In this document: piece after piece, positions 1 to 14,559 of the stretch
Layout of the letters: each line of letters begins with the position of its first letter
Numbering within the stretch: position 1 is the first letter of the stretch
Assembly (NCBI GenBank): GCA_964566135.1
Contig: CAZMHM010000002.1
Location: forward strand, 1,925-65,924
DNA length: 64,000 bases
Source of the DNA: an uncultured Candidatus Saccharibacteria bacterium
GTDB lineage: Bacteria > Patescibacteriota > Saccharimonadia > Saccharimonadales > CAIOMD01
Reading direction: 5' to 3'
Notes under the pieces: model-generated
Database searches by the model: none
What the model saw: the letters and a program-made list of their open reading frames with translations, nothing else
Told to the model about the DNA's origin: nothing
Program-made: the position numbers and the translations under genes

Positions 1-849
1 TGGGCTTGGCAGGTAATCGTTCATCATGTCTAGAACTTTTTCAACAATCACACCACGGCCGTCACCACCAGATACTGGGAAGAACTTACCACCCAATGTA
101 GCGGTACGGATAGCTTGCTTTACTTCGTCGATACTGAGGCCTTCTTCACCTACTTCAAAGTACTTTTCTAGCATAGCTTCGTCTTCGGCGACAGCGTTTT
201 CAACAAGGAGGCTTCGATACTTCTTGGCCTTATCAAGCATGTCAGCAGGAATTTCACCTTCGACAAGTGCGTGGTCTGCAAATTCTTTGTAGGTGTATGC
301 TTTCATTTCTACAAGGTCAACAACACCATTGATGCTTTGTTCAAAGCCAATAGGTAAATGTACTGGGAACGCACGCTTGTTTAGGCGATTGTGGATGCTA
401 TCAAGAGATTTGTAGAAATCACCGCCAGTTTGGTTAATCTTGTTGATGAAACAAATGCGAGGCACGCCGTATTTGTCGGCCTGGCGCCAGACAGTTTCGG
501 ATTGTGATTCAACACCCATCTTACCGTCAAAAACAACACAAGCGCCGTCGAGCACGCGCAAAGAGCGTTCTACTTCAACGGTAAAGTCAATGTGTCCTGG
601 GGTGTCAATAATGTTAATTTGGCAATGCTTCCAGAAACAGGTAACTGAGGCTGCAACAATGGTAATACCACGCTCGCGTTCTTGAGCCATCCAGTCGGTT
701 GTAGTTTCGCCGTCGTGTACAGCGCCAATTTTGTGGCTTAAACCGGTGCGGTACAAAATACCTTCGGTTGTAGTTGTCTTACCGGCGTCAATATGCGCGA
801 TAATACCGACGTTACGAATCTTATCCATTGGGGTTGCTTTAGTTGCCAT
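1..849 (-). CDS. fusA: Elongation factor G, N-terminal 283 codons (gene runs off the window's left edge)
   Basis: Hand translation of the reverse strand from ATG 849..847 gives MATKATPMDKIRNVGIIAHIDAGKTTTTEGILYRTG...DWMAQERERGITI...NIIDTPGHIDF. These are the G1-G3 GTPase motifs, and the N-terminus is EF-G type rather than EF-Tu type. The ORF is absent from the track because no stop occurs before the edge. Confidence 0.9.
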   Translation of the reverse strand, partial: MATKATPMDKIRNVGIIAHIDAGKTTTTEGILYRTGLSHKIGAVHDGETTTDWMAQERERGITIVAASVTCFWKHCQINIIDTPGHIDFTVEVERSLRVLDGACVVFDGKMGVESQSETVWRQADKYGVPRICFINKINQTGGDFYKSLDSIHNRLNKRAFPVHLPIGFEQSINGVVDLVEMKAYTYKEFADHALVEGEIPADMLDKAKKYRSLLVENAVAEDEAMLEKYFEVGEEGLSIDEVKQAIRTATLGGKFFPVSGGDGRGVIVEKVLDMMNDYLPSP

Positions 850-931
850 AGTTCCTCTTATTGTTACAAATTATTATTGTTGCTCTCCACGTTTGTGAAT
901 TTTGGCCACAAACAGCAACACTCGGTGGTCA

Positions 932-960
932 ATTATACGCGATTTTTCCCTGTTTGGCTA
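932..960 (-). promoter_or_regulatory. Putative sigma70-type promoter for fusA (TAGCCA-N17-TATAAT)
   Basis: On the minus strand, TATAAT is at 937..932 and a weak -35 TAGCCA is at 960..955 with a 17-nt spacer. The site lies about 80 nt upstream of the fusA ATG. Confidence 0.35.
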
Positions 961-1105
961 GGCTAAAATGCACTACCCAAATAATTCGTAAATGTCGTCA
1001 CGACCCGACTCATCGTCTTGGTCTGTATCAGCATCAAGTATTGCAAGCATATTTGCACATGCAATCCTGCCAGGCCCGTCGCCTCGTATACAGCTCGCGT
1101 GGCGT

Positions 1106-1408
1106 TCAAGAGTGTCTGCCGTCTATACCGTCAGCTTGTTTGAGCTTGCCGGCCCTAATTGCGGCTTCACGAGCACGGATATCAACAATATCAAGCGGGC
1201 ACGAATGCTCATCAGAGGTTTCCGCTGGTTCTGTTACTATCGGCACCACATCTGCAACTGTTTCTTCACTTACTTCTTGGCGGGGCTCAGGCACAGTTGC
1301 GCGAGCAGCAATTTCTGCTTCTTCTAGTATTTCAGCAGCCGTCCAATTGCCTTCGGCAATTAGTCGTTCCATTTCAGGGGTTACAATACGTTCAAATGAT
1401 TCGGTCAT
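1106..1408 (-). CDS. Hypothetical acidic 100-aa protein
   Basis: ORF track entry. AGGA lies 5 nt upstream of the ATG, and the ORF has its own TTTACA-N16-TATAAT promoter upstream. The protein is Glu/Ala-rich and I recognise no motif. Confidence 0.4.
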   Translation of the reverse strand: MTESFERIVTPEMERLIAEGNWTAAEILEEAEIAARATVPEPRQEVSEETVADVVPIVTEPAETSDEHSCPLDIVDIRAREAAIRAGKLKQADGIDGRHS

Positions 1409-1436
1409 GGGGTTCCTATCGATTTATAAATTATTT

Positions 1437-1464
1437 ATTATATAACTTTTACTTTTTTTGTAAA
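1437..1464 (-). promoter_or_regulatory. Putative promoter TTTACA-N16-TATAAT for the 100-aa ORF
   Basis: On the minus strand, -35 TTTACA is at 1464..1459 and -10 TATAAT is at 1442..1437 with a 16-nt spacer. Confidence 0.4.
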
Positions 1465-1472
1465 GTGTAGCA

Positions 1473-1844
1473 TTACACTGGTTGTTCTGGCGGTACCGAG
1501 CCATCATACCCATCGTGCTCTTGCCTGAAGTAATCGAGTACGGCACTCGTGCCTAAATCAAGCAAAATATGCTCTACTGTTGCTCGCACTCGTGCCTCGT
1601 TTGTGAGGCTACCGAACCCACTATTTATATTAAATCGTAGTAGTGTTGCATGTTCCGAAGTCAGCATGTGCTCTAGGTTAACTGATACATCACCCTTAAC
1701 AAATTCCAGATATTCTGCCGAAGGCGAAAATGGAGGTTCAATCCTGATTTGGCCAGTATTGAGCTCTTCAGTTCCACCAACGTATGCACGGTATGGATTA
1801 CCGTCTCTTTCATATTCGGGAGGTAGTACTTCAAAAAATGCCAT
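1473..1844 (-). CDS. Hypothetical 123-aa protein
   Basis: ORF track entry. Its ATG lies 1 nt after the stop of the upstream 103-aa ORF, which suggests translational coupling. No recognisable motif. Confidence 0.55.
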   Translation of the reverse strand: MAFFEVLPPEYERDGNPYRAYVGGTEELNTGQIRIEPPFSPSAEYLEFVKGDVSVNLEHMLTSEHATLLRFNINSGFGSLTNEARVRATVEHILLDLGTSAVLDYFRQEHDGYDGSVPPEQPV

Positions 1845-1845
1845 A

Positions 1846-2157
1846 TTACTCCGTACCTTCTTGCGTTAGGTTGTCAAGCTTTGCAACCAAACCATCCAGC
1901 TCGGAATGCTGGCCAATAACAAAGTCCTGCATAATTGCATGATATCCAAGATTGTAGGCCATATGATCTTGCGCGTCACGTATAGCTCGATACATAACGC
2001 CAGTATCAATAACGTCACCTAGTTCCTCTGGGGTATTAATACTTACGCTGACACTCTGTTTTACTACATCCCTTGCCAGACGAATATATAAGTCGGCTGG
2101 CTGCTCAAAATATACTCCGGGGTATACCTTTTCTGCTACTTCTATCCATTTGCGCAT
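1846..2157 (-). CDS. Hypothetical 103-aa protein
   Basis: ORF track entry. It is the first gene after the rpsG terminator, and a TAAGG sequence lies about 10 nt upstream of the ATG. Confidence 0.55.
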   Translation of the reverse strand: MRKWIEVAEKVYPGVYFEQPADLYIRLARDVVKQSVSVSINTPEELGDVIDTGVMYRAIRDAQDHMAYNLGYHAIMQDFVIGQHSELDGLVAKLDNLTQEGTE

Positions 2158-2222
2158 TGTTATTTCGCCTTACTTTTTAACTACAACTATATCTAGGAGT
2201 ATAAACTCGATACTTCAAGTAA

Positions 2223-2256
2223 CCAAAAGCGCCTTACGTAATGATGCGTAAGGCGC
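2223..2256 (-). terminator. Intrinsic terminator after rpsG
   Basis: The minus strand reads GCGCCTTACG-CATCATTA-CGTAAGGCGC followed by TTTTGG. This is a perfect 10-bp stem. Confidence 0.8.
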
Positions 2257-2280
2257 AATTTAGTCTGTTTAATACAGGAT

Positions 2281-2760
2281 TTAGGTACGGGCGAAGTGAG
2301 CAAACGCGCGGTTTGACTCAGCCATCTTGTGCGTATCTTCACGCTTCTTAACAGCTGCACCGGTGCCGTTAAAGGCATCCATGATTTCTGCTGCTAAGCG
2401 ATCAGCCATTGGCATGCCCTTGCGAGCACGAGCGGCAGCCACGAACCACATAAGGGTAAGGTGACTTTGGCGCTGGCCACGAACTTCAAAAGGAATCTGA
2501 TAGTTCGCACCACCGACACGGCGAGAACGAGTCTCGACGCTAGGCTTTACGTTATCGAGTGCTTTGTTAAGCACCTCTAGTGCGTCTTCTTGCTTTAGCT
2601 TAGCTGCTGCTGATTCCATTGCGTCATACACAATGCGCTCTGCAAGCTGCTTTTTACCATCAAGCATGACACGGTTGATTAAACGTGCAACGCGGACGTT
2701 GTGATACTTTCGGTCTGGTTCAACTTCTCGGACCAGGCTCTTGGTTTTCTTTCGTGGCAT
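2281..2760 (-). CDS. rpsG: 30S ribosomal protein S7
   Basis: The 159-aa sequence [45 protein letters not shown]... is typical S7, and the gene lies downstream of rpsL. Confidence 0.97.
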
Positions 2761-2837
2761 TTCTGTACTCCTTTATTTAATACTTCGGTGTGTTCCTGGC
2801 TGGTAGGCCGGCGGTCACTGAAGCCACGTTAAAATTA

Positions 2838-3251
2838 CTATTTACTATCTTTTTTGGCGCCGTACTTACTGCGACCTTGCTTGCGGTTGTTAACACCTTG
2901 CAAGTCGAGTGAGCCACGTACCACGTGGTAACGAACACCAGGAAGGTCAGGCACACGGCCACCGCGGATTAATACCACAGCGTGCTCTTGTAGGTTGTGA
3001 CCTTCACCACCAATGTAGGCCCATACTTCGTAGCCATTAGTAAGGCGCACACGTGCTACCTTACGCAAAGCTGAGTTAGGCTTTTTTGGAGTCTTGGTTG
3101 TTACCTTTACGCAGACACCACGCTTAAATGGTGCTGGTTTTTCGTAAGCCTTAGTCTTAAGGCTGTTTGTTACGCGCATCAAAGCAGGAGACTTGCTTTT
3201 TACACTTGCTCTCCCACGAGGTTTGCGAACTAATTGATTGATTGTTGGCAT
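2838..3251 (-). CDS. rpsL: 30S ribosomal protein S12
   Basis: [12 protein letters not shown]...[36 protein letters not shown]...[14 protein letters not shown] is a canonical S12 sequence. Confidence 0.97.
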
Positions 3252-3273
3252 ACAGGTTCCTATTTAAACAGAT

Positions 3274-6200
3274 TTATACTTCTTCGTCAAGAAGTTCGTC
3301 GTCATCGACATCTGGCGTGTAGCCAGTGCCAACTGGAATCTTGCGACCCAGGATAACGTTTTCTTTAAGACCATACAGCTGATCGACCTTGCCACTTGTT
3401 GCTGCTGCGATAAGAACACGAGTTGTGTCTTGGAAGCTTGCAGCTGACAAGAAGCTATCAGCCCAGGTTGATACCTTGGTAATTCCGAGTAGTAGCTGGC
3501 TGTATCCTGCTGGCTTTTTGCCTTCTTCTACAAGACGCAAGTTTGCCTCGAATACTGCAGCACGGCTCGCAATATCACCAGTTACAAATTCACTATCACC
3601 AGGTTCTTCGATGGTTACACGGCTAAACATCTGACGCACAACGATTTCGAGGTGCTTATCAGCGATGTTCTGACCTTGGGTTGCGAAAATCTTGCTGATT
3701 TCGTTCATGATGTAGCGCTGAGTATCTTCAACACTCTTAAGACGCATTAAGTCATGAAGGTTAACAGAACCACTCGTAAGACGATCGCCAGCCTTAACGC
3801 TGTCGCCATCTTTAACAAGCAATTGCTTAAAGCCAGGGATTTCGTAACGGACAACCGCTTGGCTCTTTGGCACGATGGTAATTTCGGTTTCTTTAACAGT
3901 TACCTTACCAGCCATGCTTGCTACTAACGGTTCAGCACCCTTTTCACGAGCGGCAAGTACATCACCAATTGATACCTCTTGGCCATCGGTAACACCTGCA
4001 GTGCGACCGAGTAGTGGCAATACTAATGACTGCTCTTCTACGCCGGTTACTTGTACTACATAGTGATCACCTTCTTCCCAAAGGTTAACAGCACCGTCAA
4101 CATCAGAAAGATATGCTTGACCCTTAGGAGTACGAACTTCAAAGAGCTCTTCTACACGGTTAAGACCTTGGGCGGTTTCGTCGGCCATGATTGCGCCGGC
4201 ACGGTGCTTAGAGTCAAGTGAAAGCTGGGTACCAGGCTCACCAATACTCTGTGCAGCAATAACACCAACTGGGTGGCGATTAACCACTAATTGGCCAGTT
4301 GCTGGGTCAACACCATAGCTCTTGCGGCTAATACCACGAACGTTGCCACTTGTTAGTGCGCTCATGATTTTAACGCTTGCAAGGTCGCTCGTTTCAACAT
4401 CAGCTGCGGCTGAGCGAGTGATTAAATCACCCTTAGCAACAAGTGTTTTGCCTGCAACAACAACATCTTCGGCAGCAAAGCGGCCTTCGAGCTTGTGTGC
4501 AAAGGTTACACCAATTTCTTCGGCGTCAGCGCGATAGATAGTGAATCCTGGATCTTCGGCGTCATCTTCTACGGTAAATACATCTTGCGATACATCAACT
4601 AAACGACGTGTTAGGTAGCCAGAGTCAGCGGTCTTCAGGGCGATGTCGATAAGCGCCTTACGAGTACCACGGGTACCGGTAAAGTATTCAAGTGGGCTAA
4701 GACCATGCTTGTAGCCAGCCTTAATTGGGAGTTCGATAGCACGGCCACTGGTGTCAGATACAACACCAAGCATACCAACACTACTCTTCATCTGACCGAT
4801 ATTACCACGAGCACCAGATGTAACGGCGATAGACATAGAATTGTCTTGGCCAGCAAGCTGATCGGCGAGTGTTGTTTGTACACGGCCGTCAACCTTCATC
4901 CAGTTTTCAACAGTCAAGCGATATCGCTCGTCGTTTGTCATAAAACCAGCTTCGTATTGATTGCTGATTTCAGCAGCTCGATCTTCACCTTCTTGGATGA
5001 GACCAGCCATTCCCTTGATATCAGGGAAGTCGTCCATACCCATTGAAAGGCCAGAGATAGTTGCATATTCAAACGCAAGGTCTTTAAGGAAGTCGGCGAT
5101 TTCTGCAGTCTTTTCTTGACCATACTTTTCGTATACTTGGGCCATAACCTTCTGAATTTTCTTCTTGGTCATAGCTTCGTTCTGGTATGGGAAGTCGCTT
5201 GGGAATAACTCGTTGAACAATAGGCGTCCTAGAGTAGTTTCACGCTTTTCGCCACGGAACTGTACCGAAATTGGGCTTTGAAGCTTAATAGTACCTTCTT
5301 CGTAGGCCATTAACGTTTCGTCAATGTCGCTGTAGTTTCGGGTAGCATCTTTTTGGTACTTGTCGTACGTCAAGTAGTAGGTGCCAAGCACGATATCTTG
5401 TTCGATGTGGAGCACCGGTGAACCGTCAGCTGGCTTTAGAATGTTCTTGCTTGCTGCCATGATGTCACGAGCTTCTGCTTGTGCGGCATCTGATAGTGGC
5501 AAGTGAACAGCCATCTGGTCACCGTCAAAGTCAGCGTTAAAACCTTTACAAACTAATGGATGCAGCTGGATAGCCTTACCTTCGATAAGTCGAGGTTGGA
5601 ACGCTTGGATACTTAGGCGGTGCAATGAAGGAGCACGGTTTAATAGCACGTACTTACCCTTAATTACTTCGTCGAGTGCATCCCAAACCGTAATATCACC
5701 AAGCTCGATTAAACGAGTTGCTGAACGGATGTTGTGTGCATGTTCATTAACAATGAGGTGGCCAATAACAAATGGTTTGAATAGTTCAAGCGCCATCATC
5801 TTTGGTAGACCACATTCGTTAATCTTAAGTTCTGGGCCAGCAACAATTACTGAACGGCCAGAGTAGTCAACACGCTTACCTAAAAGGTTTTGGCGGAATC
5901 GACCCTGCTTACCCTTAAGCATGTCAGAAAGACTCTTAAGGCGACGGCGTTGGCCGGTGCTACTTACCGCACGACCGCTACGTGCAGAGTTGTTGTCGAT
6001 GAGTGCATCAACAGCTTCTTGCAGCATACGCATTTCGTTACGGCGGATAACTTCTGGAGCGTTAAGGTCAATGAGCTTCTTAAGACGGTTATTACGGTTA
6101 ATAACACGTCGGTAAAGGTCGTTAAGGTCACTGGTTGCGAAACGGCCGCCAGTAAGCTGCACCATTGGGCGCAAATCTGGAGGAATAACTGGCAACACCG

Positions 6201-7086
6201 TTAGGCACATGCTTGCGGGTTCGATACCGGCGCGTTGCATGCTCTCTAGAATTCGGAGGCGCTTCATTATCTTCTTCTTGCGTTGTCCCTTAGCTTCTTC
6301 TACTTCGACAGAAAGCTGTGCGATGAGTTCTGAAAGATCAACGCTATCAAGCATTGCCTTAACAGCATCACCACCCATACCAACCTTGATGAAATCTTGC
6401 AAATCATCAGGAAGCGCGCGGTAATCAGTCTCGCTAAGAAGTGCGTGTCGCTGTAGGCTATCGAGTTGTGCCTTAAGTTTTTCGTATTCTTTAGCAGTTT
6501 CTTCAAGCTCTTTGGTGCGCTCTGTAGCCAAAGCTTTCACATCAGCACCGTCTTCTGCTGCAGTTTGCTCGTAGCGAGCTTCGATAGCAATTTTAGCAGC
6601 TGCTGCTTCGGCTTCTTTGTCGGCCATCATCTGGTCGCGCTTAGCTTCGTCAACTTCTAGGATTACATAGCTTGCAAAGTAGGCAATGCGCTCTAGGTTC
6701 TTAACAGTCATGTTAAGTACGAGGCCGGTTGCACTTGGTGTACCACGGAGGAACCAAATGTGCGTTACTGGGCTTGCTAAGGTAATGTGCCCCATTCGTT
6801 CACGTCGTACAATTGCCTTGGTTACGATTTCGCCGTTTTTATCAACAGCGGCTTCGCGACTTCGAAGACCCTTGTACTTCGCATCATGTGGGTTAATATC
6901 TTTTACTGGTCCAAAAATCTTTTCGCAGAACAAACCATCTCGTTCTGGCTTCTGGGTTCGGTAGTTGATGGTTTCTGGTTTTGTAACCTCGCCATAACTC
7001 CAATCCATGATATCGCTAGGGCTAGCAACCGCGAGGCGCACAGCATCAAAGTCGGCGATATTGGTACCGTGAGAGTATTTTCGCAT
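3274..7086 (-). CDS. rpoC: DNA-directed RNA polymerase subunit beta'
   Basis: 1270 aa. It contains the NADFDGDQMAVH catalytic Mg motif and starts 4 nt after the rpoB stop. Confidence 0.98.
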   Translation of the reverse strand: MRKYSHGTNIADFDAVRLAVASPSDIMDWSYGEVTKPETINYRTQKPERDGLFCEKIFGPVKDINPHDAKYKGLRSREAAVDKNGEIVTKAIVRRERMGHITLASPVTHIWFLRGTPSATGLVLNMTVKNLERIAYFASYVILEVDEAKRDQMMADKEAEAAAAKIAIEARYEQTAAEDGADVKALATERTKELEETAKEYEKLKAQLDSLQRHALLSETDYRALPDDLQDFIKVGMGGDAVKAMLDSVDLSELIAQLSVEVEEAKGQRKKKIMKRLRILESMQRAGIEPASMCLTVLPVIPPDLRPMVQLTGGRFATSDLNDLYRRVINRNNRLKKLIDLNAPEVIRRNEMRMLQEAVDALIDNNSARSGRAVSSTGQRRRLKSLSDMLKGKQGRFRQNLLGKRVDYSGRSVIVAGPELKINECGLPKMMALELFKPFVIGHLIVNEHAHNIRSATRLIELGDITVWDALDEVIKGKYVLLNRAPSLHRLSIQAFQPRLIEGKAIQLHPLVCKGFNADFDGDQMAVHLPLSDAAQAEARDIMAASKNILKPADGSPVLHIEQDIVLGTYYLTYDKYQKDATRNYSDIDETLMAYEEGTIKLQSPISVQFRGEKRETTLGRLLFNELFPSDFPYQNEAMTKKKIQKVMAQVYEKYGQEKTAEIADFLKDLAFEYATISGLSMGMDDFPDIKGMAGLIQEGEDRAAEISNQYEAGFMTNDERYRLTVENWMKVDGRVQTTLADQLAGQDNSMSIAVTSGARGNIGQMKSSVGMLGVVSDTSGRAIELPIKAGYKHGLSPLEYFTGTRGTRKALIDIALKTADSGYLTRRLVDVSQDVFTVEDDAEDPGFTIYRADAEEIGVTFAHKLEGRFAAEDVVVAGKTLVAKGDLITRSAAADVETSDLASVKIMSALTSGNVRGISRKSYGVDPATGQLVVNRHPVGVIAAQSIGEPGTQLSLDSKHRAGAIMADETAQGLNRVEELFEVRTPKGQAYLSDVDGAVNLWEEGDHYVVQVTGVEEQSLVLPLLGRTAGVTDGQEVSIGDVLAAREKGAEPLVASMAGKVTVKETEITIVPKSQAVVRYEIPGFKQLLVKDGDSVKAGDRLTSGSVNLHDLMRLKSVEDTQRYIMNEISKIFATQGQNIADKHLEIVVRQMFSRVTIEEPGDSEFVTGDIASRAAVFEANLRLVEEGKKPAGYSQLLLGITKVSTWADSFLSAASFQDTTRVLIAAATSGKVDQLYGLKENVILGRKIPVGTGYTPDVDDDELLDEEV

Positions 7087-7090
7087 CGAA

Positions 7091-10000
7091 TTATGCCTCC
7101 CCTTCTTCTATTACTTCATCTGATTCATCGAGTTCCTCGACAGCGCCAACGGCAACTTCTTCACCCTTTTCGTCTAGTACTAAAAATTCATCTGCAACAA
7201 TGTCTTCGGTTACGTCAACATCGCTAATTGCGTCTTGAGGAACTTCGACATCTGATTGATGGCTTGCTTCGTCTTTGATGTTAACTTCGAGGAGTTCCTC
7301 GGCGTCAACAACATGGCCGATGCTTTGATCAACGAGATCAACCTTAAGGCCGAGACCTTGCAGTTCTTTCACAAGCACGTTAAAGCTTTCTGGAACCTTT
7401 GGTCCAACAATCTCGGTTTGCTTGATGATGCTTTCGTAAGCCTTTGCGCGTCCGTAAACATCGTCAGACTTAATGGTAAGCATTTCTTGTAGTGTGCTGG
7501 CGGCGCCGTAAGCTTCGAGCGCCCACACTTCCATCTCTCCAAAGCGCTGACCACCATTTTGCGCCTTACCACCAAGTGGCTGCTGGGTAACCATAGTGTA
7601 TGGCCCAGTGCTACGAGCGTGAATCTTATCGGCAATCATGTGGTTAAGCTTAATCATGTACATACTGCCAACGGTGGTTCGTTCTTTGAACGGTTCACCA
7701 TTGCGGCCATCGTACAACTGTTGCTTGCCGTCTTCTGGCAAGCCAGCTTCCTTAAGCAAACTTTGAATCTTATCAATTGGCACACCATTAAATGGTGGGC
7801 TGGCTACCTTTAGGCCTAGGGCACGTGCGGCCATACCAAGGTGAGTTTCGAACAACTGTCCGATGTTCATACGACTCGGCACACCGAGTGGGTTAAGCAC
7901 TAAGTCCATTGGCGTACCGTCTTCGGTAAATGGCATGTCTTCTTGTGGAAGAACGCGGGCAATAACACCCTTGTTACCGTGACGACCACCAAGCTTGTCT
8001 CCAACTGCAACTTTACGCATTTGGGCAACAAACACCTGGATTTGCATAATCACACCGGCTTTAAGCTCGTGGCCGTTAGCGCGGCTAAATACCTTAACGC
8101 CAACAACTTTACCGTGCTTACCGTTACTCATACGCTGTGAAGTATCACGTACTTCCTTGGCTTTTTCACCAAAGATAGCGCGCAATAGGCGTTCTTCGCT
8201 TGAAAGTTCTTGCTCACCCTTAGGGGTAATCTTACCAACAAGGATATCGCCTGGGCGAACTTCGGCACCAATGCGGACAATACCGTCATCATCAAGGTGA
8301 CGGAGCGCTTCTTCAGATACGTTTGGTATATCGCGAGTAACAACTTCTGGTCCGAGCTTTGTTTCACGAACTTCGGTCATGTAATCAACAATGTGGATGC
8401 TCGTAAAGACATCGTCTTTAACTAAGCGATCGCTTACGATGATAGCGTCTTCAAAGTTGTAGCCGCTCCATGGCATGAATGCCACTAGTACGTCTTTACC
8501 AAGTGCAAGTTCGCCGTTTTCGACGCTCATGCCCTCGATGAGCACATCACCAGCTTTTACTGCATCACCAGAGTTAACAACAACTTTTTGGTTGATGCTT
8601 GAACCCTCGTTACTGCGCTGGAAGTGAAGTGGGTGGTATGACTTTTTGACTTTACCGTATTCAACAACAACTTCGTCACCACTTGCCTTAGTAACAATAC
8701 CGTCTTCTTCGGCAAGAGTAATCTGGCCCGTGTTACGTGCGGCAGTTGCCTCGATACCAGTACCAACAATCGGAGATTGTGGGTTGATAAGTGGCACAGC
8801 CTGACGTTGCTGGTTGCTACCCATGAGTGAGCGGTACACGTAGTTCTTTTCAATAAATGGAATCAATGCAGCAGATGAACCAACGATTTGCTTTAGGGCT
8901 GCGTCCATGTGTGTAACTTCGTTGGCATCGACTTCACCGGCAACTAAACGAGCACGTACCGAAACACGTGGCTCTACAAAGTAACCGTTTTCGTCAATAT
9001 CATTACCGGCACCGGCAATAACAGCTTTTTCTTCTTCGCTTGCGTCAAGGTAAATGACTTCGGTGGTAACCTTAGCCTTGATTGGCCAGGTAATTTTGCT
9101 TTTTACAGCTTCGAGCTTTTTAGCATCAGCAGCAGTAATGGTTGCACCTTTTTTAACGATGGTCTTGCCCTTTTCGTCTTCTAAATCAACGGCAGCAATA
9201 TGGCCTGCTGCGTCTTTTGCTGGTACAGCGTTCAATACTTTGCGATATGGAGTTTCAAGGAAACCATACTCGTTAATACGAGCATAGCTAGCCATGTTAA
9301 GTACCAAACCAATGTTGGCACCTTCTGGTGTTTCAACGGCACAAATACGACCGTAGTGAGTAGCGTGCGCGTCACGAACTTCAAAACCAGCGCGTTCGCG
9401 TGATAGGCCACCAGGACCCATCGAGCTCAGGCGTCGCTTGTGGGCGAGCTCAGATAGCGGATTAATTTGGTCCATGAACTGGCTAAGTTGTGAGCTTGCA
9501 AAGAATTCGCGGACAGCAGCAACAACCGGGCGAGCATTAATAAGCTGGCCAGGGGTTACTGTTTCGATTTCGCTCATACTCATGCGGTCTTTAGCGTTTC
9601 GTTCCATGCGGAGTAAACCAATACGGAACTGGCGCTGTACGAGTTCACCAACCAATTTCACACGGCGATTAGCAAGGCTATCGATATCGTCTGCTAAGTC
9701 TTGTGTGTTGTTAAGGCGAATAACTTCGGCAACAATAGCAATGAGGTCTTCTAGACGCATAACACGGTTTTCAGCAGTGTTAGGCACATCTAGGTCTAGG
9801 CGCTTGTTAATCTTGTAACGACCAACACGGCTAAAGTCAAAGCGCTTAAAGTTGTAGAACATGTTTTCTAGCAAGCTTCGAGCGTTATCAACAGTAGCTA
9901 AATCACCTGGGCGCAAACGACGATACACTTCGATAAGCGCTTCGTTGCTACCCTTAGCAGGATCTTTTTCGAGTGTTGCATTGATGTAATTGAGCTTGCC

Positions 10001-10642
10001 AGTATCAACGTGCTTTACGGCTTCGTGGATAGCAGTTTCGCTCATACCAAGTGCCTTAAATAGAGTTGTAACCGCAATCTTACGACGGCGATCAATCTTT
10101 ACATAAAGAGCACCGCTGGCTGCAGTCTCAAATTCAAGCCATGCACCACGGTTAGGGATAACCTTAGCGCCATAGAGCTTGTGTCCACCATGATTATCAG
10201 ACGTAAAGAACACGCCTGGGCTACGAATAAGCTGGCTAACAACAACGCGCTCAGCGCCATTGATAACGAACGTACCGCGCTCGGTCATCCATGGGTAATC
10301 ACCCAAGTAGATTTCTTGTTCTTTAACTTCGCCTGTTACCTTGTTGGTAAGTTCTACAACTGCCTTTAATGGGGCATCGTAGCTGACGTTGTTTTCGCGA
10401 GCTTCAGCTTCGGAAATTTTTGGTTCCTCAAAGTGGTAGCTCTTGAAACTTAATGATAGTTTTGTACCAGTGTAGTCATCGATAGGACTAACTTCGGCTA
10501 AAAGCTCACCCAAACCCTCATCAACAAACCACTGGAAACTCTTGTTCTGGTGGTCAACTAGGTTCGGGAGGCTGATATCTTCACTTTTTGTGTAATATGT
10601 ACGCGAAACTTGCGTCGTATCCTTGGCTGCTGTCTTGGCCAT
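7091..10642 (-). CDS. rpoB: DNA-directed RNA polymerase subunit beta
   Basis: 1183 aa with conserved beta-subunit blocks (GEMEVWALEAYGAA, NMGQ-like region). It has an acidic C-terminal tail. Confidence 0.98.
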   Translation of the reverse strand: MAKTAAKDTTQVSRTYYTKSEDISLPNLVDHQNKSFQWFVDEGLGELLAEVSPIDDYTGTKLSLSFKSYHFEEPKISEAEARENNVSYDAPLKAVVELTNKVTGEVKEQEIYLGDYPWMTERGTFVINGAERVVVSQLIRSPGVFFTSDNHGGHKLYGAKVIPNRGAWLEFETAASGALYVKIDRRRKIAVTTLFKALGMSETAIHEAVKHVDTGKLNYINATLEKDPAKGSNEALIEVYRRLRPGDLATVDNARSLLENMFYNFKRFDFSRVGRYKINKRLDLDVPNTAENRVMRLEDLIAIVAEVIRLNNTQDLADDIDSLANRRVKLVGELVQRQFRIGLLRMERNAKDRMSMSEIETVTPGQLINARPVVAAVREFFASSQLSQFMDQINPLSELAHKRRLSSMGPGGLSRERAGFEVRDAHATHYGRICAVETPEGANIGLVLNMASYARINEYGFLETPYRKVLNAVPAKDAAGHIAAVDLEDEKGKTIVKKGATITAADAKKLEAVKSKITWPIKAKVTTEVIYLDASEEEKAVIAGAGNDIDENGYFVEPRVSVRARLVAGEVDANEVTHMDAALKQIVGSSAALIPFIEKNYVYRSLMGSNQQRQAVPLINPQSPIVGTGIEATAARNTGQITLAEEDGIVTKASGDEVVVEYGKVKKSYHPLHFQRSNEGSSINQKVVVNSGDAVKAGDVLIEGMSVENGELALGKDVLVAFMPWSGYNFEDAIIVSDRLVKDDVFTSIHIVDYMTEVRETKLGPEVVTRDIPNVSEEALRHLDDDGIVRIGAEVRPGDILVGKITPKGEQELSSEERLLRAIFGEKAKEVRDTSQRMSNGKHGKVVGVKVFSRANGHELKAGVIMQIQVFVAQMRKVAVGDKLGGRHGNKGVIARVLPQEDMPFTEDGTPMDLVLNPLGVPSRMNIGQLFETHLGMAARALGLKVASPPFNGVPIDKIQSLLKEAGLPEDGKQQLYDGRNGEPFKERTTVGSMYMIKLNHMIADKIHARSTGPYTMVTQQPLGGKAQNGGQRFGEMEVWALEAYGAASTLQEMLTIKSDDVYGRAKAYESIIKQTEIVGPKVPESFNVLVKELQGLGLKVDLVDQSIGHVVDAEELLEVNIKDEASHQSDVEVPQDAISDVDVTEDIVADEFLVLDEKGEEVAVGAVEELDESDEVIEEGEA

Positions 10643-10848: not shown

Positions 10849-11559
10849 TTATCTAAAGTTACGTTCGTAGGGCTGAAGCTGCTGCAATCGGCGCCGTACA
10901 TATAGCAAATCGGGTAGCTCTAGCGCCTTTTCAGCGCGCCATTGCTTATCATCACCTCTTGTCTCACTCATGAAATTTTGTGGCTTTGCCTCTAGCGCTT
11001 CGAGAGCCCGATGACTTGAGCTATCAAGATGTGCACTAGAAACTCTAACGCCTCGCCCCCTGCCGTAACTAAGATCATTTATAAATCCGTCAGTATCAAA
11101 TGCCTGTAGTGCAAAGCGTACAAGATGCAGTTTTGCAGCAACTCGATTAACATCTGGAAGTTCAAGCGAAATCGGGCCTTTAAACAAACTCTGCACTACC
11201 ACTTTTTCAATCGGTACTGCGCCGCCATTTATGCCTACTCCGTATTCTTTTACTTGCTCAAAACCGACAAATGCGTGACCGACCATACTGTTCGGACTCC
11301 CGGGATCTGCGGTTAGATTATCAAATAAGCCGACCGCCAACACACCGTTACCATACTTAGCAATTCGGGCCGCTACTGGAGTTAACTGTTGCTGATTACG
11401 GGCAGCGGAGCCGGACTCAAATGCAACTGCAGTTTCTGCGGCAGCAGCATATTGCGATGCATTCCAAACAGGCAACTTTTCACCAATTGCCTGTAACGAG
11501 AACGGATGATCATTAATCGTAATTAGTTCGGGTTCAGGGACTATAAGATTTCGTTTCAT
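10849..11559 (-). CDS. Hypothetical protein (about 236 aa from MKRNLIV; the track ORF extends to GTG 11601)
   Basis: ORF track 10849..11601. I prefer the ATG at 11559 because TATACT lies 7 nt upstream of it. I recognise no family. Confidence 0.5.
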   Translation of the reverse strand: MKRNLIVPEPELITINDHPFSLQAIGEKLPVWNASQYAAAAETAVAFESGSAARNQQQLTPVAARIAKYGNGVLAVGLFDNLTADPGSPNSMVGHAFVGFEQVKEYGVGINGGAVPIEKVVVQSLFKGPISLELPDVNRVAAKLHLVRFALQAFDTDGFINDLSYGRGRGVRVSSAHLDSSSHRALEALEAKPQNFMSETRGDDKQWRAEKALELPDLLYVRRRLQQLQPYERNFR

Positions 11560-11646
11560 GTTACATAGTATAGTGCTGCTTTTCACGCTAGCCATGAGCA
11601 CTTTACCTGTTTCAAGTTATCGGTATGGCTTATATTACACAACAAC

Positions 11647-11670
11647 AAGCGGCCCCATATGGGGCCGCTT
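11647..11670 (-). terminator. Hairpin terminator after clpP
   Basis: AAGCGGCCCC-ATAT-GGGGCCGCTT is a perfect 10-bp palindromic stem, followed on the minus strand by GTTGTTGTTG, which is only a weak U tract. Confidence 0.6.
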
Positions 11671-11689
11671 AGATTAGCCGTGCGTAAAA

Positions 11690-12280
11690 CTACTTGCGGT
11701 TTGTGATGATATCGTCGATAAGGCCGTATTTTTTGGCTTCTTCGGCGGTCATCCAATAATCACGCTCTACATCTTTTTCGATAGTTGCGAGCTTTTGGCC
11801 AGTGTTTTTTGCCAACACTTCGTTAAGTAACTTCTTAAGGCGAAGACCCTCCTTAAGGTCAATTTCCATATCGGTAACCTTACCACGGGTGCCGCTACTT
11901 GGCTGGTGAATCATCGTTGTAGCGTGTGGCAACATAAATCGCTTGCCTTTGGCGCCACTGCTTAGCAAGAATGCGCCCATACTCGCCTGTACACCAATAC
12001 CAACAGTCTGTACGTCACACTTTACAAATTGCATGGTGTCGTAAATGGCCATGCCATCATAGACACTGCCGCCCGGGCTGTTAATATAAAAAATAATGTC
12101 TTTTCTAGGGTCTTCTGCCTCTAAAAATAGCATCTGTGCAACCACGAGGTTGGCGGTGTGCTCGTTTACGTCTTCGCCTAAAAAGATGATACGGTCTTTT
12201 AATAGTCGGCTATAAATATCATAGGCACGTTCTACACGGCCATCGTTTTCGATTACGGTTGGAATAAGCATGTTTTTCAT
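11690..12280 (-). CDS. clpP: ATP-dependent Clp protease proteolytic subunit
   Basis: 196 aa with typical ClpP sequence: ...[52 protein letters not shown]...QASMGAFLL...IHQP. Confidence 0.95.
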
Positions 12281-12287
12281 ACCCTAA

Positions 12288-12329
12288 ATTGTAGTCCGTA
12301 AATTAGCACTCGTCAAGCCTGAGTGCTAA
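12288..12329 (-). promoter_or_regulatory. clpP promoter overlapped by a perfect CIRCE inverted repeat
   Basis: TTAGCACTC-N9-GAGTGCTAA occupies 12303..12329, a perfect match to the HrcA operator consensus. On the minus strand, -35 TTGACG (12316..12311) lies inside the element. A 17-nt spacer separates it from -10 TACAAT (12293..12288), which is 7 nt from the ATG. Confidence 0.8.
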
Positions 12330-12727
12330 TTATGTGTTTTACCAATATACCGATACTCGACAGTGTCATCGGGGAATCGAACAAGTACATCATCGGTTTC
12401 GCCATATAACGGCATTGTAGCCTCCAGCAACCGAGCACGCGCTTGTGCGAGCAAGGCAGCTTGTGCAACATCTTGTACGTTTGTTGCAAACAAGTAGCGC
12501 TCACCGCTCCTTGTCTGACCCAGTAGGTCAATGGCACCCGGCGTACGAATGAACGGGTAGGCATCTACATGGTCAAACTCTTCGCCAGGTAGTAGCAAAA
12601 CACTTTTGTGCCAAAATCGAGGTAATGAGACCTTCGTCGGTTCGGCAACAGTAGGAGGCTGCGACGTTCGAGCTTCGAGCGTTCGATCAATGAAAAATCT
12701 GCTTCTATTGAACTTAGAACTAGTCAT
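12326..12727 (-). CDS. Hypothetical 133-aa protein
   Basis: ORF track entry. TATAAT (12739..12734) lies 6 nt upstream of the ATG and there is no SD. No motif recognised. Confidence 0.5.
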   Translation of the reverse strand: MTSSKFNRSRFFIDRTLEARTSQPPTVAEPTKVSLPRFWHKSVLLLPGEEFDHVDAYPFIRTPGAIDLLGQTRSGERYLFATNVQDVAQAALLAQARARLLEATMPLYGETDDVLVRFPDDTVEYRYIGKTHN

Positions 12728-12765
12728 GCAACAATTATAAGCCCAGCCAAGGACAAAACCATGAG

Positions 12766-13227
12766 CTATTTACCTGCAATGCTAGCGAGGAAATTGTTAA
12801 TAGCATTTTTTGCCTTGGTCATGCCGGCAGTATCCCGGGTATATTCGATAATTGTAAGATTAGGGTGGGTGTTCGGAGCACCTGCAATCATTGCTGAAAG
12901 CGAATGACCATCTTCAACCTTAGCGAATAAGCACAGTACTGGCTTGCTAAGAGTTAGTGCATGATGAATCTCATATCCAACACCTAAACTTGGATTAGTC
13001 ACTTCTGCAATGATGCCATTAGATTCATCTATCCAAGCAAGATCACGATCATGTATAAATTCAGGTGGCTGATTTTGCCCATTTTGCGACAAATTTGCAT
13101 AACCAACATGTTCACACAGCACGGTTGCACCCTGAGCCTTTATGTCTTCAATCAGTTGGTTATATACAGCTTGGTCTTTGCGACCACCACGGATAGAACC
13201 AGCGAAATATACTTTTAGCTCACTCAT
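12766..13227 (-). CDS. 2'-deoxynucleoside 5'-phosphate N-hydrolase (DNPH1/Rcl family; nucleoside 2-deoxyribosyltransferase-like fold)
   Basis: It carries YFAGSIRGGR, EHV, IHDRDLAWI, AEVTNPSLGVGYE, LCLF and LSAMIAG. These line up block-for-block with the DNPH1 signature as I recall it (YFCGSIRGGR...AEVTQPSLGVGYE...LSAMIRGA). Confidence 0.8.
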   Translation of the reverse strand: MSELKVYFAGSIRGGRKDQAVYNQLIEDIKAQGATVLCEHVGYANLSQNGQNQPPEFIHDRDLAWIDESNGIIAEVTNPSLGVGYEIHHALTLSKPVLCLFAKVEDGHSLSAMIAGAPNTHPNLTIIEYTRDTAGMTKAKNAINNFLASIAGK

Positions 13228-13275
13228 AGCTACAGTATACCCAAAGTGAGTACAATAGTTTACAAGGAAATATGA

Positions 13276-14559
13276 TTAAGCTTTTGCGTAACTAACAAGC
13301 TTGGCGATGGTTTTTTCGGTAAGTAGGCGTGACGCGATGTCGCGACGAGCTTCGGGCTTTTCGAGCTCAGCCTGCATCTGAGGGTCGCTATATTGTCCCT
13401 TCATAATCTGCATGCGGATCTCAATCTCATCGGCCGATACGGTAAGCTTTTCGAGTGTGGCAATTTCACTCAGCAACAATCCTGCCTTCAAACGCTCTTC
13501 TGCCGCTGGCTTAAGTTCTTTTTCGCGATATTCTTGTTCGGTTTGCTGCGTGTTCTCTAAATATTCTTTGATAGTCTCGCCACGATAGGTAAGATTCTGC
13601 TTGAACTCGCGGTCGACTGCCTCGATTTGCTCTTCTAGCAATGCTTCTGGCAAGTTGATTTTAGCCTTAGCAACAAGGCTCTTAATGATTTGATTTTCAA
13701 ACTCTTGGTTGGCTTGATTCTCGCGCTCTATACCAATTTGCTTTTTAATATCCGCTTTAAGCTCGGTAATATCTTTAAATGGACCAACCTTAGCTGCGAA
13801 CGCATCATTGAGCTCTTCGAGCTTTGTTTCTTCAACTTTCTTAACTGTAACGGCAAATGTAACTTTTTTACCCTGTAAGGCCTTCACGCCATAGTCTTTA
13901 GGAAACGGAATAGTGAATGTTTTGTCGTCACCGGCTTTTAGGCCAATTACGGCGTCTTCGAACCCAGGAATAAACGTATTGCTTCCAAGCGCTAACGGAT
14001 AATCTTTACCGGTTGCGCCGTTGACCGGCGCGCCTTTGTCGTCATTGCCTTCGAAATCAATCGTCGCGCGGTCACCGCTTTTCGCAGCTCGCTCGACTTC
14101 AACATATTCGGCAGTTTGTGTTCGTAAGCGCTCAAGCACTTCGTCTACATCTTTGGCAGTTACTTTAACTTCTGGTTTTTTAGCAGTCGTCTTTTTGTAA
14201 TCAGGCACAACAATCTTGCCAATTACTTCTACTTCAGCAGTAAATTCGAGCTCGGAATAAGGTACAAACTTAACAAGCTCAACCTTGGGCTGAGACACAA
14301 CGCGCAGTTCTTTATCTGATATGGCATCACCATAGTAGTGATTAATGGCTTCGTCTAATAGCTCGGCTTGTAATGTGTTTGGATCGAGCTGTTTTTCGAC
14401 TAGCTCTAGTGGCACTTTACCGGCACGAAAACCAGGAATTCTCACTTTGGGTGCAAGCTTTTCAACCACGTGCTTTTTCATCGCGGCCAAATCTTTTGCA
14501 TCGGCAGAAATAGTTAGTTTAGTAATGTTGTCTGAGATTGATTTAAGAGTTACTTGCAT
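13276..14559 (-). CDS. tig: Trigger factor
   Basis: 427 aa. The N-terminal ribosome-binding loop PGFRAGKVP and a central FKBP-like PPIase region (FIPGFEDAVIGLKAGD) are present. Confidence 0.93.
   Translation of the reverse strand: MQVTLKSISDNITKLTISADAKDLAAMKKHVVEKLAPKVRIPGFRAGKVPLELVEKQLDPNTLQAELLDEAINHYYGDAISDKELRVVSQPKVELVKFVPYSELEFTAEVEVIGKIVVPDYKKTTAKKPEVKVTAKDVDEVLERLRTQTAEYVEVERAAKSGDRATIDFEGNDDKGAPVNGATGKDYPLALGSNTFIPGFEDAVIGLKAGDDKTFTIPFPKDYGVKALQGKKVTFAVTVKKVEETKLEELNDAFAAKVGPFKDITELKADIKKQIGIERENQANQEFENQIIKSLVAKAKINLPEALLEEQIEAVDREFKQNLTYRGETIKEYLENTQQTEQEYREKELKPAAEERLKAGLLLSEIATLEKLTVSADEIEIRMQIMKGQYSDPQMQAELEKPEARRDIASRLLTEKTIAKLVSYAKA

Follow-up and report, generated by a model that had tools for sequence, protein, structure and literature searches.

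Few bacterial gene arrays are as strongly conserved as the str operon. Here we describe a str operon from an uncultured Candidatus Saccharibacteria bacterium in which the genes for ribosomal protein S7 (rpsG) and elongation factor G (EF-G; fusA) are set apart by 1431 nucleotides (nt) that contain three genes, one strong hairpin, and two promoter-like sites. The operon lies at the start of a 64,000-nt stretch of contig CAZMHM010000002.1 (GenBank assembly GCA_964566135.1), referred to below as the window. At the sequence level, rpsG and fusA are not neighbours in the window, and both genes and a terminator intervene. The three open reading frames (ORFs), designated A, B, and C in order of transcription, are an orphan, a member of a new protein family, and a clade-specific gene that is mis-assembled or variant, respectively; together they make the locus a lineage-typical variant of the str operon.

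Gene content of the rpsG–fusA interval

The initial 11 kb of the window carries genes on the minus strand only. The rpsG gene (positions 2281–2760) encodes the 159-amino-acid (aa) S7 protein, which is identified by a Pfam Ribosomal_S7 match on the identical gene in contig L001 (L numbers are our locus labels); it is 88% identical to Candidatus Saccharibacteria metagenome-assembled genomes (MAGs). At the other end, fusA starts at position 849 and runs off the window; translation of its first 283 codons (1–849) gives a sequence that is 81–91% identical to EF-G of relatives. ORF A (1846–2157) encodes 103 aa and is recognized by its reading frame, ribosome-binding site, and codon usage. ORF B (1473–1844) encodes 123 aa and is recognized by its frame, profile family, ratio of nonsynonymous to synonymous substitution (dN/dS), AlphaFold model, and synteny. 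The 5′ part of ORF C (1106–1408) is an open frame of 100 aa that is 56–65% identical to homologues in loci L002 and L084. The stop codon of A (1846–1848) and the ATG of B (1842–1844) are separated by a single base (1845), as a preliminary description of this DNA, made from the sequence alone, had reported for the pair.

All three ORFs encode acidic proteins (isoelectric point, pI, 4.4–4.7), and a Shine–Dalgarno-like sequence precedes each of them, with AAGG as the ribosome-binding site of A. Codon-usage log-odds per codon, from a model built on 19 long window genes, are 0.28 (A), 0.20 (B), and 0.32 (C). For comparison, in-frame segments of true genes score 0.25 ± 0.09 and every off-frame control scores below 0. 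A, B, and C use the genome's own codon usage, and no compositional anomaly was found across the slot genes. None of the three proteins matches Pfam, NCBIfam, PADLOC (PADLOC-DB 2.0), or PHROGs, which bears out the earlier remark that they carry no recognizable motif.

ORF B defines a new protein family

The B protein is a member of a new acidic alpha/beta family with a typical length of about 115 aa. When 1.84 billion representative sequences were searched in full with a HMMER profile (cut-off E < 1e-3), 49 representatives were recovered, nearly all of 105–128 aa and matched over their full length. The family alignment (A3) comprises 45 members with four motifs, NPY-x-A (NPYRA), G-x-IRIEPP (G-x-IRIEPPF), AT-x-L-x-F, and L-x-x-LG, all of which occur in the B protein of the window (hmmsearch E 4e-36). 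Both prolines of G-x-IRIEPP (P37 and P38) are invariant in 45 of 45 sequences. Family members are 105–140 aa long and all are acidic (pI 4.2–5.4). Comparison of B with its L002 homologue gives a dN/dS of 0.15, which at the sequence level indicates that B is under purifying selection. The family-wide scan for known domains returns no Pfam match for the 45 members, and only single chance-level hits to NCBIfam and PADLOC models. An earlier description of the feature was not found in the searchable literature.

An AlphaFold model of B built on the family alignment is confident (predicted local distance difference test, pLDDT, 91.5; predicted template-modelling score, pTM, 0.82) and has the topology b1-b2-b3-a1-b4-b5-a2-a3. 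Foldseek searches of the PDB and BFVD with this model return nothing at E < 1e-3, and sequence-profile searches of the PDB are empty for both B and C. In the Foldseek comparison, which the preliminary description had proposed, B has a confident model with no neighbour at that threshold; the single-sequence model of A is helical at low confidence (pLDDT 55) and is unusable for a fold search.

Other routes to homologues added little. Word-indexed searches retrieved only near-identical or clade-level relatives, and metagenome-contig scans with B and C alignment patterns retrieved none, with patterns so narrow that they missed a JGI contig that carries both genes. Two long proteins in the B match list, P0038 and P0048, are repeat proteins and appear to be spurious matches; P0038 consists of Ig-like surface-protein repeats. 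A, C, and the 127-aa gene of L002 were also considered as diverged B paralogues and were rejected (hhalign probability ≤ 0.1%).

Position of B across Saccharibacteria

A survey of rpsG–fusA content in relatives, which the preliminary description had suggested, finds B homologues with readable neighbours between rpsG and fusA in seven of seven independent lineages, the window included. All B-carrying loci belong to Saccharibacteria, judged by rpsG and fusA similarity. The spacing is commonly tight. In L085/L086, a gap of 1 nt separates the rpsG stop from B and one of 2 nt separates B from fusA; in L087 the gaps are 2 and 9 nt, and the cluster continues through fusA to tuf and rpsJ; in L088/L089 they are 2 and 41 nt in the order rpoB-rpoC-rpsL-rpsG-B-fusA. 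The same order occurs in L091, where a distant family member (E 2.6e-6) has a stop codon that overlaps the fusA start. L090 differs in that rpsG is followed by a terminator, and B and a paralogue of it are separated from fusA by three further small genes. In L002 the rpsG terminator is followed by an unrelated 127-aa gene, a 1-nt gap, B, and C, and in L003 the slot holds A, B, and C. B occurs without A in five lineages (L085, L087, L088, L090, and L091), where it is either coupled to rpsG or located after an rpsG terminator.

Two of these loci have peculiarities of their own. Besides B, the five small genes of L090 (6497–8424) comprise a B paralogue of 142 aa and three genes whose products contain cysteine (130, 143, and 87 aa). 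In L091 (6098–6995; NCBI MAG GCA_964426755.1), rpsG is called as pieces of 88 and 111 aa that lie about 300 nt apart, which is probably an assembly problem.

ORF A and the frameshift in ORF C

A is a lineage-specific orphan that is acidic and predicted to be all-helical. Its sole homologue is a 99% identical twin with only 4 nucleotide differences. A is intact in L003, a 97%-identical relative, and it is related neither to B or C nor to the 127-aa gene that takes its place in L002, likewise 1 nt before B.

The open frame of C is interrupted by a frameshift. Intact homologues carry one G (GAC-G-GCA-GAC) at the site where positions 1119–1120 of the window read GG. Removal of one G at this site gives a C protein of 144 aa that aligns end to end with P0005, the 134-aa homologue in L084. 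Intact homologues have at least 134 aa, and P0005 and the L002 copy of C both extend well beyond residue 96. The displaced 3′ part (973–1119) consists of 48 codons in the +1 frame (976–1119) that end ...DQDDESGRDDIYELFG, followed by a stop codon at 973–975. This tail matches the L084 copy with a phmmer E-value of 2.6e-22, has no internal stop codon, has a codon log-odds of 0.25, and differs from the L084 copy with a dN of 0.10 against a dS of 1.5. Among the three C copies compared, dN/dS is 0.12–0.19, a pattern of substitution that indicates purifying selection on C. The preliminary description had listed a lack of purifying selection on the inserted ORFs among the findings that would count against it; the values for B and C show no such lack, and the twin of A is too similar to contribute. 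The protein encoded by C combines a helical N-terminus with an acidic linker and a conserved tail, and has His and Cys at conserved positions.

The likeliest source of the frameshift is an error in assembly or a variant in the population. Logan contig L001, which is independent and 100% identical over 1.9 kb, terminates at base 1120, the last base that the intact (GACGCAGAC) and frameshifted (GACGGCAGAC) alleles have in common. A break at precisely this point in a separate contig suggests a variant or an error and speaks against decay. Programmed frameshifting was likewise rejected: the homologues encode C in frame, and neither a slippery nor a stop-codon context occurs at the site. C had been described as an acidic, separately promoted gene of 100 aa, which is also the length in the public annotation. 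Its acidity and promoter hold, and its length is revised to 144 aa. With C restored by frameshift repair, the non-coding spacer before fusA shrinks to about 123 nt from the roughly 250 nt originally proposed.

Terminator, promoters, and flanking genes

The intrinsic-terminator-like hairpin 3′ of rpsG (2223–2256, with the hairpin proper at 2229–2256), located by sequence scan and folding, has a 10-bp stem and an 8-nt loop followed by UUUUGG. Folded within its context of 81 nt, it reaches −28.6 kcal/mol (z = −5.6), a stability matched by 0 of 200 shuffled sequences, which agrees with the strong 10-bp-stem terminator of the preliminary description. Comparable hairpins occur 3′ of rpsG in L002, L084, and L090.

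Sequence scans place a promoter-like site before C (TTTACA-16-TATAAT, 1437–1464) that matches 11 of 12 consensus positions and has the counterpart TTTACA-16-TATAGT in L002. The new promoter that had been proposed ahead of fusA corresponds to a second promoter-like site (TAGCCA-17-TATAAT, 932–960). This site and the fusA leader (850–931), which is conserved in nucleotide comparisons with relatives, are nearly identical in L084. A motif in the leader, approximately G-Y-T-R-TTTTTT-R-TGG-C-M-AAAAA, lies just 3′ of the TATAAT box (850–931 on the minus strand of the window; 1361–1443 in L084) and is common to six further loci of distant Saccharibacteria (L015, L017, L018, L020, L021, and L022), again ahead of fusA. 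The shared motif may represent a promoter, leader, or operator of fusA that has been conserved. Formation of a conserved hairpin by the leader RNA was considered and is unsupported (z = −0.22, no Rfam match), and an Rfam scan of positions 700–3400 gives no match.

Upstream of rpsG, rpsL (2838–3251) encodes ribosomal protein S12 (137 aa), identified from its frame and translation; relatives with matching gene order carry Pfam Ribosom_S12_S23. It is preceded by rpoC (3274–7086) and rpoB (7091–10642). The region upstream of rpoB (10849–14559) lacks the rplJ-rplL pair found there in most bacteria and contains instead an unassigned 250-aa ORF, clpP (11690–12280), and the trigger factor gene (13276–14559), with the last two identified from translations only. 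A tblastn search with E. coli bL12 finds no bL12 gene in the window.

The rpsG–fusA junction as a variable slot

A split str operon is unusual, as had been supposed. Outside Saccharibacteria, the gap between rpsG and fusA is at most 181 nt in 55 of 57 loci sampled (median 49 nt, with no gene in between). Among these 57 loci, only L028 (Paceibacterota, 3.5 kb) and L062 (Treponemataceae, 3.0 kb) have insertions of kilobase size. In Saccharibacteria, fusA was located in 16 species representatives, of which 12 have gaps of 163 nt to 5.6 kb and four have gaps of at most 57 nt; two further representatives have no fusA within 6 kb of rpsG. Plus-strand ORFs occupy most of the larger gaps, and these ORFs show no relationship to one another or to A, B, and C. 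These wide gaps with differing contents indicate that the rpsG–fusA junction is a variable slot in the phylum.

Slot contents also vary over short distances. Within the clade of the window (rpsG > 94% identical), the slot holds A, B, and C in the window and L003, the 127-aa gene, B, and C in L002, and C by itself in L084. Only short chance repeats flank the slot genes. In the closest species representative (L004, rpsG 88%), the slot (942–1782) holds genes of 164 and 117 aa that overlap by 8 nt; this pair has no Pfam match and no relation to A, B, or C. One gene does recur among the otherwise unrelated slot contents: a gene for YajQ/DUF520 (PF04461, E 3e-49) lies directly 3′ of rpsG in Nanosynbacter-like Saccharibacteria (L021:6593–7087, L015:9060–9635, L016:6560–7054, and L022:6485–6978), and appears as two ORFs in L022.

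Possible function and history of the slot genes

B can be viewed as a widespread slot resident that is mostly the fourth cistron of the str operon; in most lineages its predicted start lies 1–2 nt after the rpsG stop, and its stop lies 0–41 nt before, or overlaps, the fusA start. Because B is older than the clade of the window, the simple order rpsG-B-fusA is probably ancestral. The clade of the window would then have broken up the operon further by gaining a terminator after rpsG and by placing an orphan gene ahead of B with 1-nt coupling, which would be A in the window and the unrelated 127-aa gene in the sister lineage L002. The clade-specific C, with its own conserved promoter, would have been added after B, and fusA would have acquired a separate promoter.

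B has been kept co-translated between S7 and EF-G despite drift to about 30% identity, so it probably works with the translation machinery, and its acidity makes protein binding likelier than rRNA binding. From gene position only, we tentatively favour the view that B assists the translation apparatus by binding one of its proteins or the ribosome (ribosome, S7, or EF-G) as a protein-binding accessory, with a probability that we place a little short of even. The suggestion in the preliminary description that the inserted genes could encode lineage-specific translation factors therefore fits B better than a toxin–antitoxin role does, on its conserved operon position; A and C have no assignable function.

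Several observations weigh against a translation role for B. An acidic protein is unlikely to bind rRNA directly. B is 26–44% identical between lineages, compared with 81–91% for the EF-G N-terminus, 84–89% for S12, and 72–75% for RpoC, and such fast divergence is unusual for a core translation component. B is missing from the slot in 20 of the 20 nearest species-representative Saccharibacteria genomes, and no small ORF tested in the slots of B-less relatives qualifies as a remnant. Unrelated genes, such as that for YajQ/DUF520, fill the same slot elsewhere, so the slot may simply tolerate cargo. Foldseek and PDB profile searches give no fold or sequence link between B and known translation proteins, and the functional step is drawn from its gene position and nothing else.

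Much of this evidence would also be expected if the junction is a permissive, well-expressed slot between conserved sequences that gathers and turns over fast-evolving accessory cargo, such as immunity-like or host-interaction proteins of epibionts (bacteria attached to the cells of a host), with no translation role for A, B, or C. We consider this a plausible alternative, albeit one that we doubt rather more than we credit. The very fast divergence of B, its absence without remnants from the nearest representatives, the different slot contents of close relatives, and the unrelated ORFs or YajQ found elsewhere are all consistent with cargo, as is the L090 array of five small genes with its tandem B paralogues. 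Slot proteins are all small and acidic, and many immunity proteins are small and acidic. In a comparison that bears on vertical descent versus cassette exchange, identity ranks of B do not track those of flanking genes (rho 0.30, p 0.40, from few flanking sequences). Against the cargo explanation, the position and tight translational coupling of B are unchanged although B is only about 30% identical between lineages. There is no toxin, integrase, repeat, or mobile-element signature nearby, and the slot genes have no match in defence, phage, or plasmid collections and have native codon usage.

We think it unlikely that some of the ORFs lack function, A having arisen by chance or very recently and C being a pseudogene in decay. 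The absence of an A homologue beyond its 99% twin and the frameshift in C, as assembled and as annotated publicly at 100 aa, point in that direction. However, the codon log-odds of A is typical of true genes and above all off-frame controls, A has a ribosome-binding site, and it is intact in L003. The out-of-frame tail of C is conserved and free of stop codons, and L001, assembled independently, stops at the very base of the indel, which suggests a variant or an error.

We assign a very low probability to the remaining explanation, in which A and B form a type II toxin–antitoxin or other selfish or defence module inserted in the str operon. The small size of both genes, their 1-nt coupling, and their location behind a terminator had prompted this proposal in the preliminary description, and it is now largely refuted: B stands alone in five lineages and has an unrelated upstream partner in L002, its chromosomal position is fixed, A and B are both acidic, A, B, and the 45 aligned B members match no toxin, antitoxin, or defence model, and none occurs in plasmids, phages, or viral contigs. 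In the last case, viral-contig scans and tblastn searches against phages and plasmids gave no real match for the slot genes, with a chance-level E of 0.5 for C.

Saccharibacteria and other members of the candidate phyla radiation (CPR), which are small-celled and mostly uncultured, are known for unusual ribosomes. As a Saccharibacteria-only family with a confident fold that has no detected neighbour, co-translated with S7 and EF-G, B is a concrete candidate for a lineage-specific translation accessory. Even if B is cargo, the locus shows that small genes come and go at a hot spot in the reduced genome of a symbiont. Whatever B does, the C frameshift corrects the public annotation.

Comparison with known systems

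Compared with the canonical str operon (rpsL-rpsG-fusA-tufA in E. coli), the window keeps the order rpsL, rpsG, fusA, with rpoB-rpoC directly upstream, and tuf and rpsJ come after fusA in B-carrying relatives too. The difference lies in the extra cistrons between rpsG and fusA; in the clade of the window, rpsG is also followed by a terminator, and C and fusA each have a promoter of their own. YajQ/DUF520 of other Saccharibacteria occupies the same slot position as the window genes; it is unrelated to them in sequence and does not occur in the window. A and B resemble type II toxin–antitoxin modules in being two small, translationally coupled genes. They differ in having no homology to known families, no obligate pairing, two acidic products, fixed synteny, and no sign of mobility; lack of a family match, lack of obligate pairing, a fixed location, and shared acidity are why the toxin–antitoxin or defence interpretation fails.

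Subunits of RNA polymerase provide a weak structural comparison. RBP11/Rpo11/RPAC2-like proteins (7a6h_K, 8hil_K, and 4qjv_D) make up half of the six best PDB matches that Foldseek gives for the B model. The matches are below significance (E 0.017–0.12, TM 0.34–0.47, root-mean-square deviation 5.6–8 Å) and B has no sequence signal of these subunits; its gene cluster starts with rpoB-rpoC. The modelled likeness may serve as a fold-level lead and does not amount to membership.

A final comparison concerns the tail of C. Bacteria recruit EF-G through the C-terminal domain of bL12 and not through a tail, and we know of no bacterial factors that use stalk-type tails. Eukaryotic P1/P2 tails end in GFGLFD. 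Repaired C and P0005 end in DDIYELFG, an acidic run followed by IYELFG, and the 87-aa protein of L090, which is encoded directly upstream of fusA and is unrelated to C, ends in GFGPLFD. A C-terminal [LIVMF]F[GD] occurs in seven of 3135 ORFs of at least 70 aa in the DNA examined, and two of the seven are these slot proteins. In Pyrococcus horikoshii, the aP1 tail includes L100, L103, S104, A105, L106, F107, and the terminal G108, L106 and F107 bind aEF1A and aEF2, and L103, L106, and F107 are all needed for this binding (PMC4267659; also PMC5887453). C matches the acidic L-F-G/L-F-D-type ending of the P-stalk proteins (aP1 and P1/P2) at the sequence level only; the likeness is a short motif that was noticed post hoc, and acidic tails of the single-stranded DNA-binding protein (SSB) type (DDDIPF) are similar too. 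The stalk N-terminal dimerization domain (Pfam Ribosomal_60s) gives no match in P0005 or repaired C, even at E up to 1. It is conceivable, and in our judgement improbable, that the slot encodes Saccharibacteria-specific modulators of translational GTPases, in which B would be a new-fold subunit that binds the ribosome, S7, or EF-G, and C and the 87-aa protein of L090 would dock EF-G or EF-Tu by a stalk-like tail. If this is true, these tails would represent a bacterial reinvention or mimic of stalk-tail recruitment that is encoded beside fusA.

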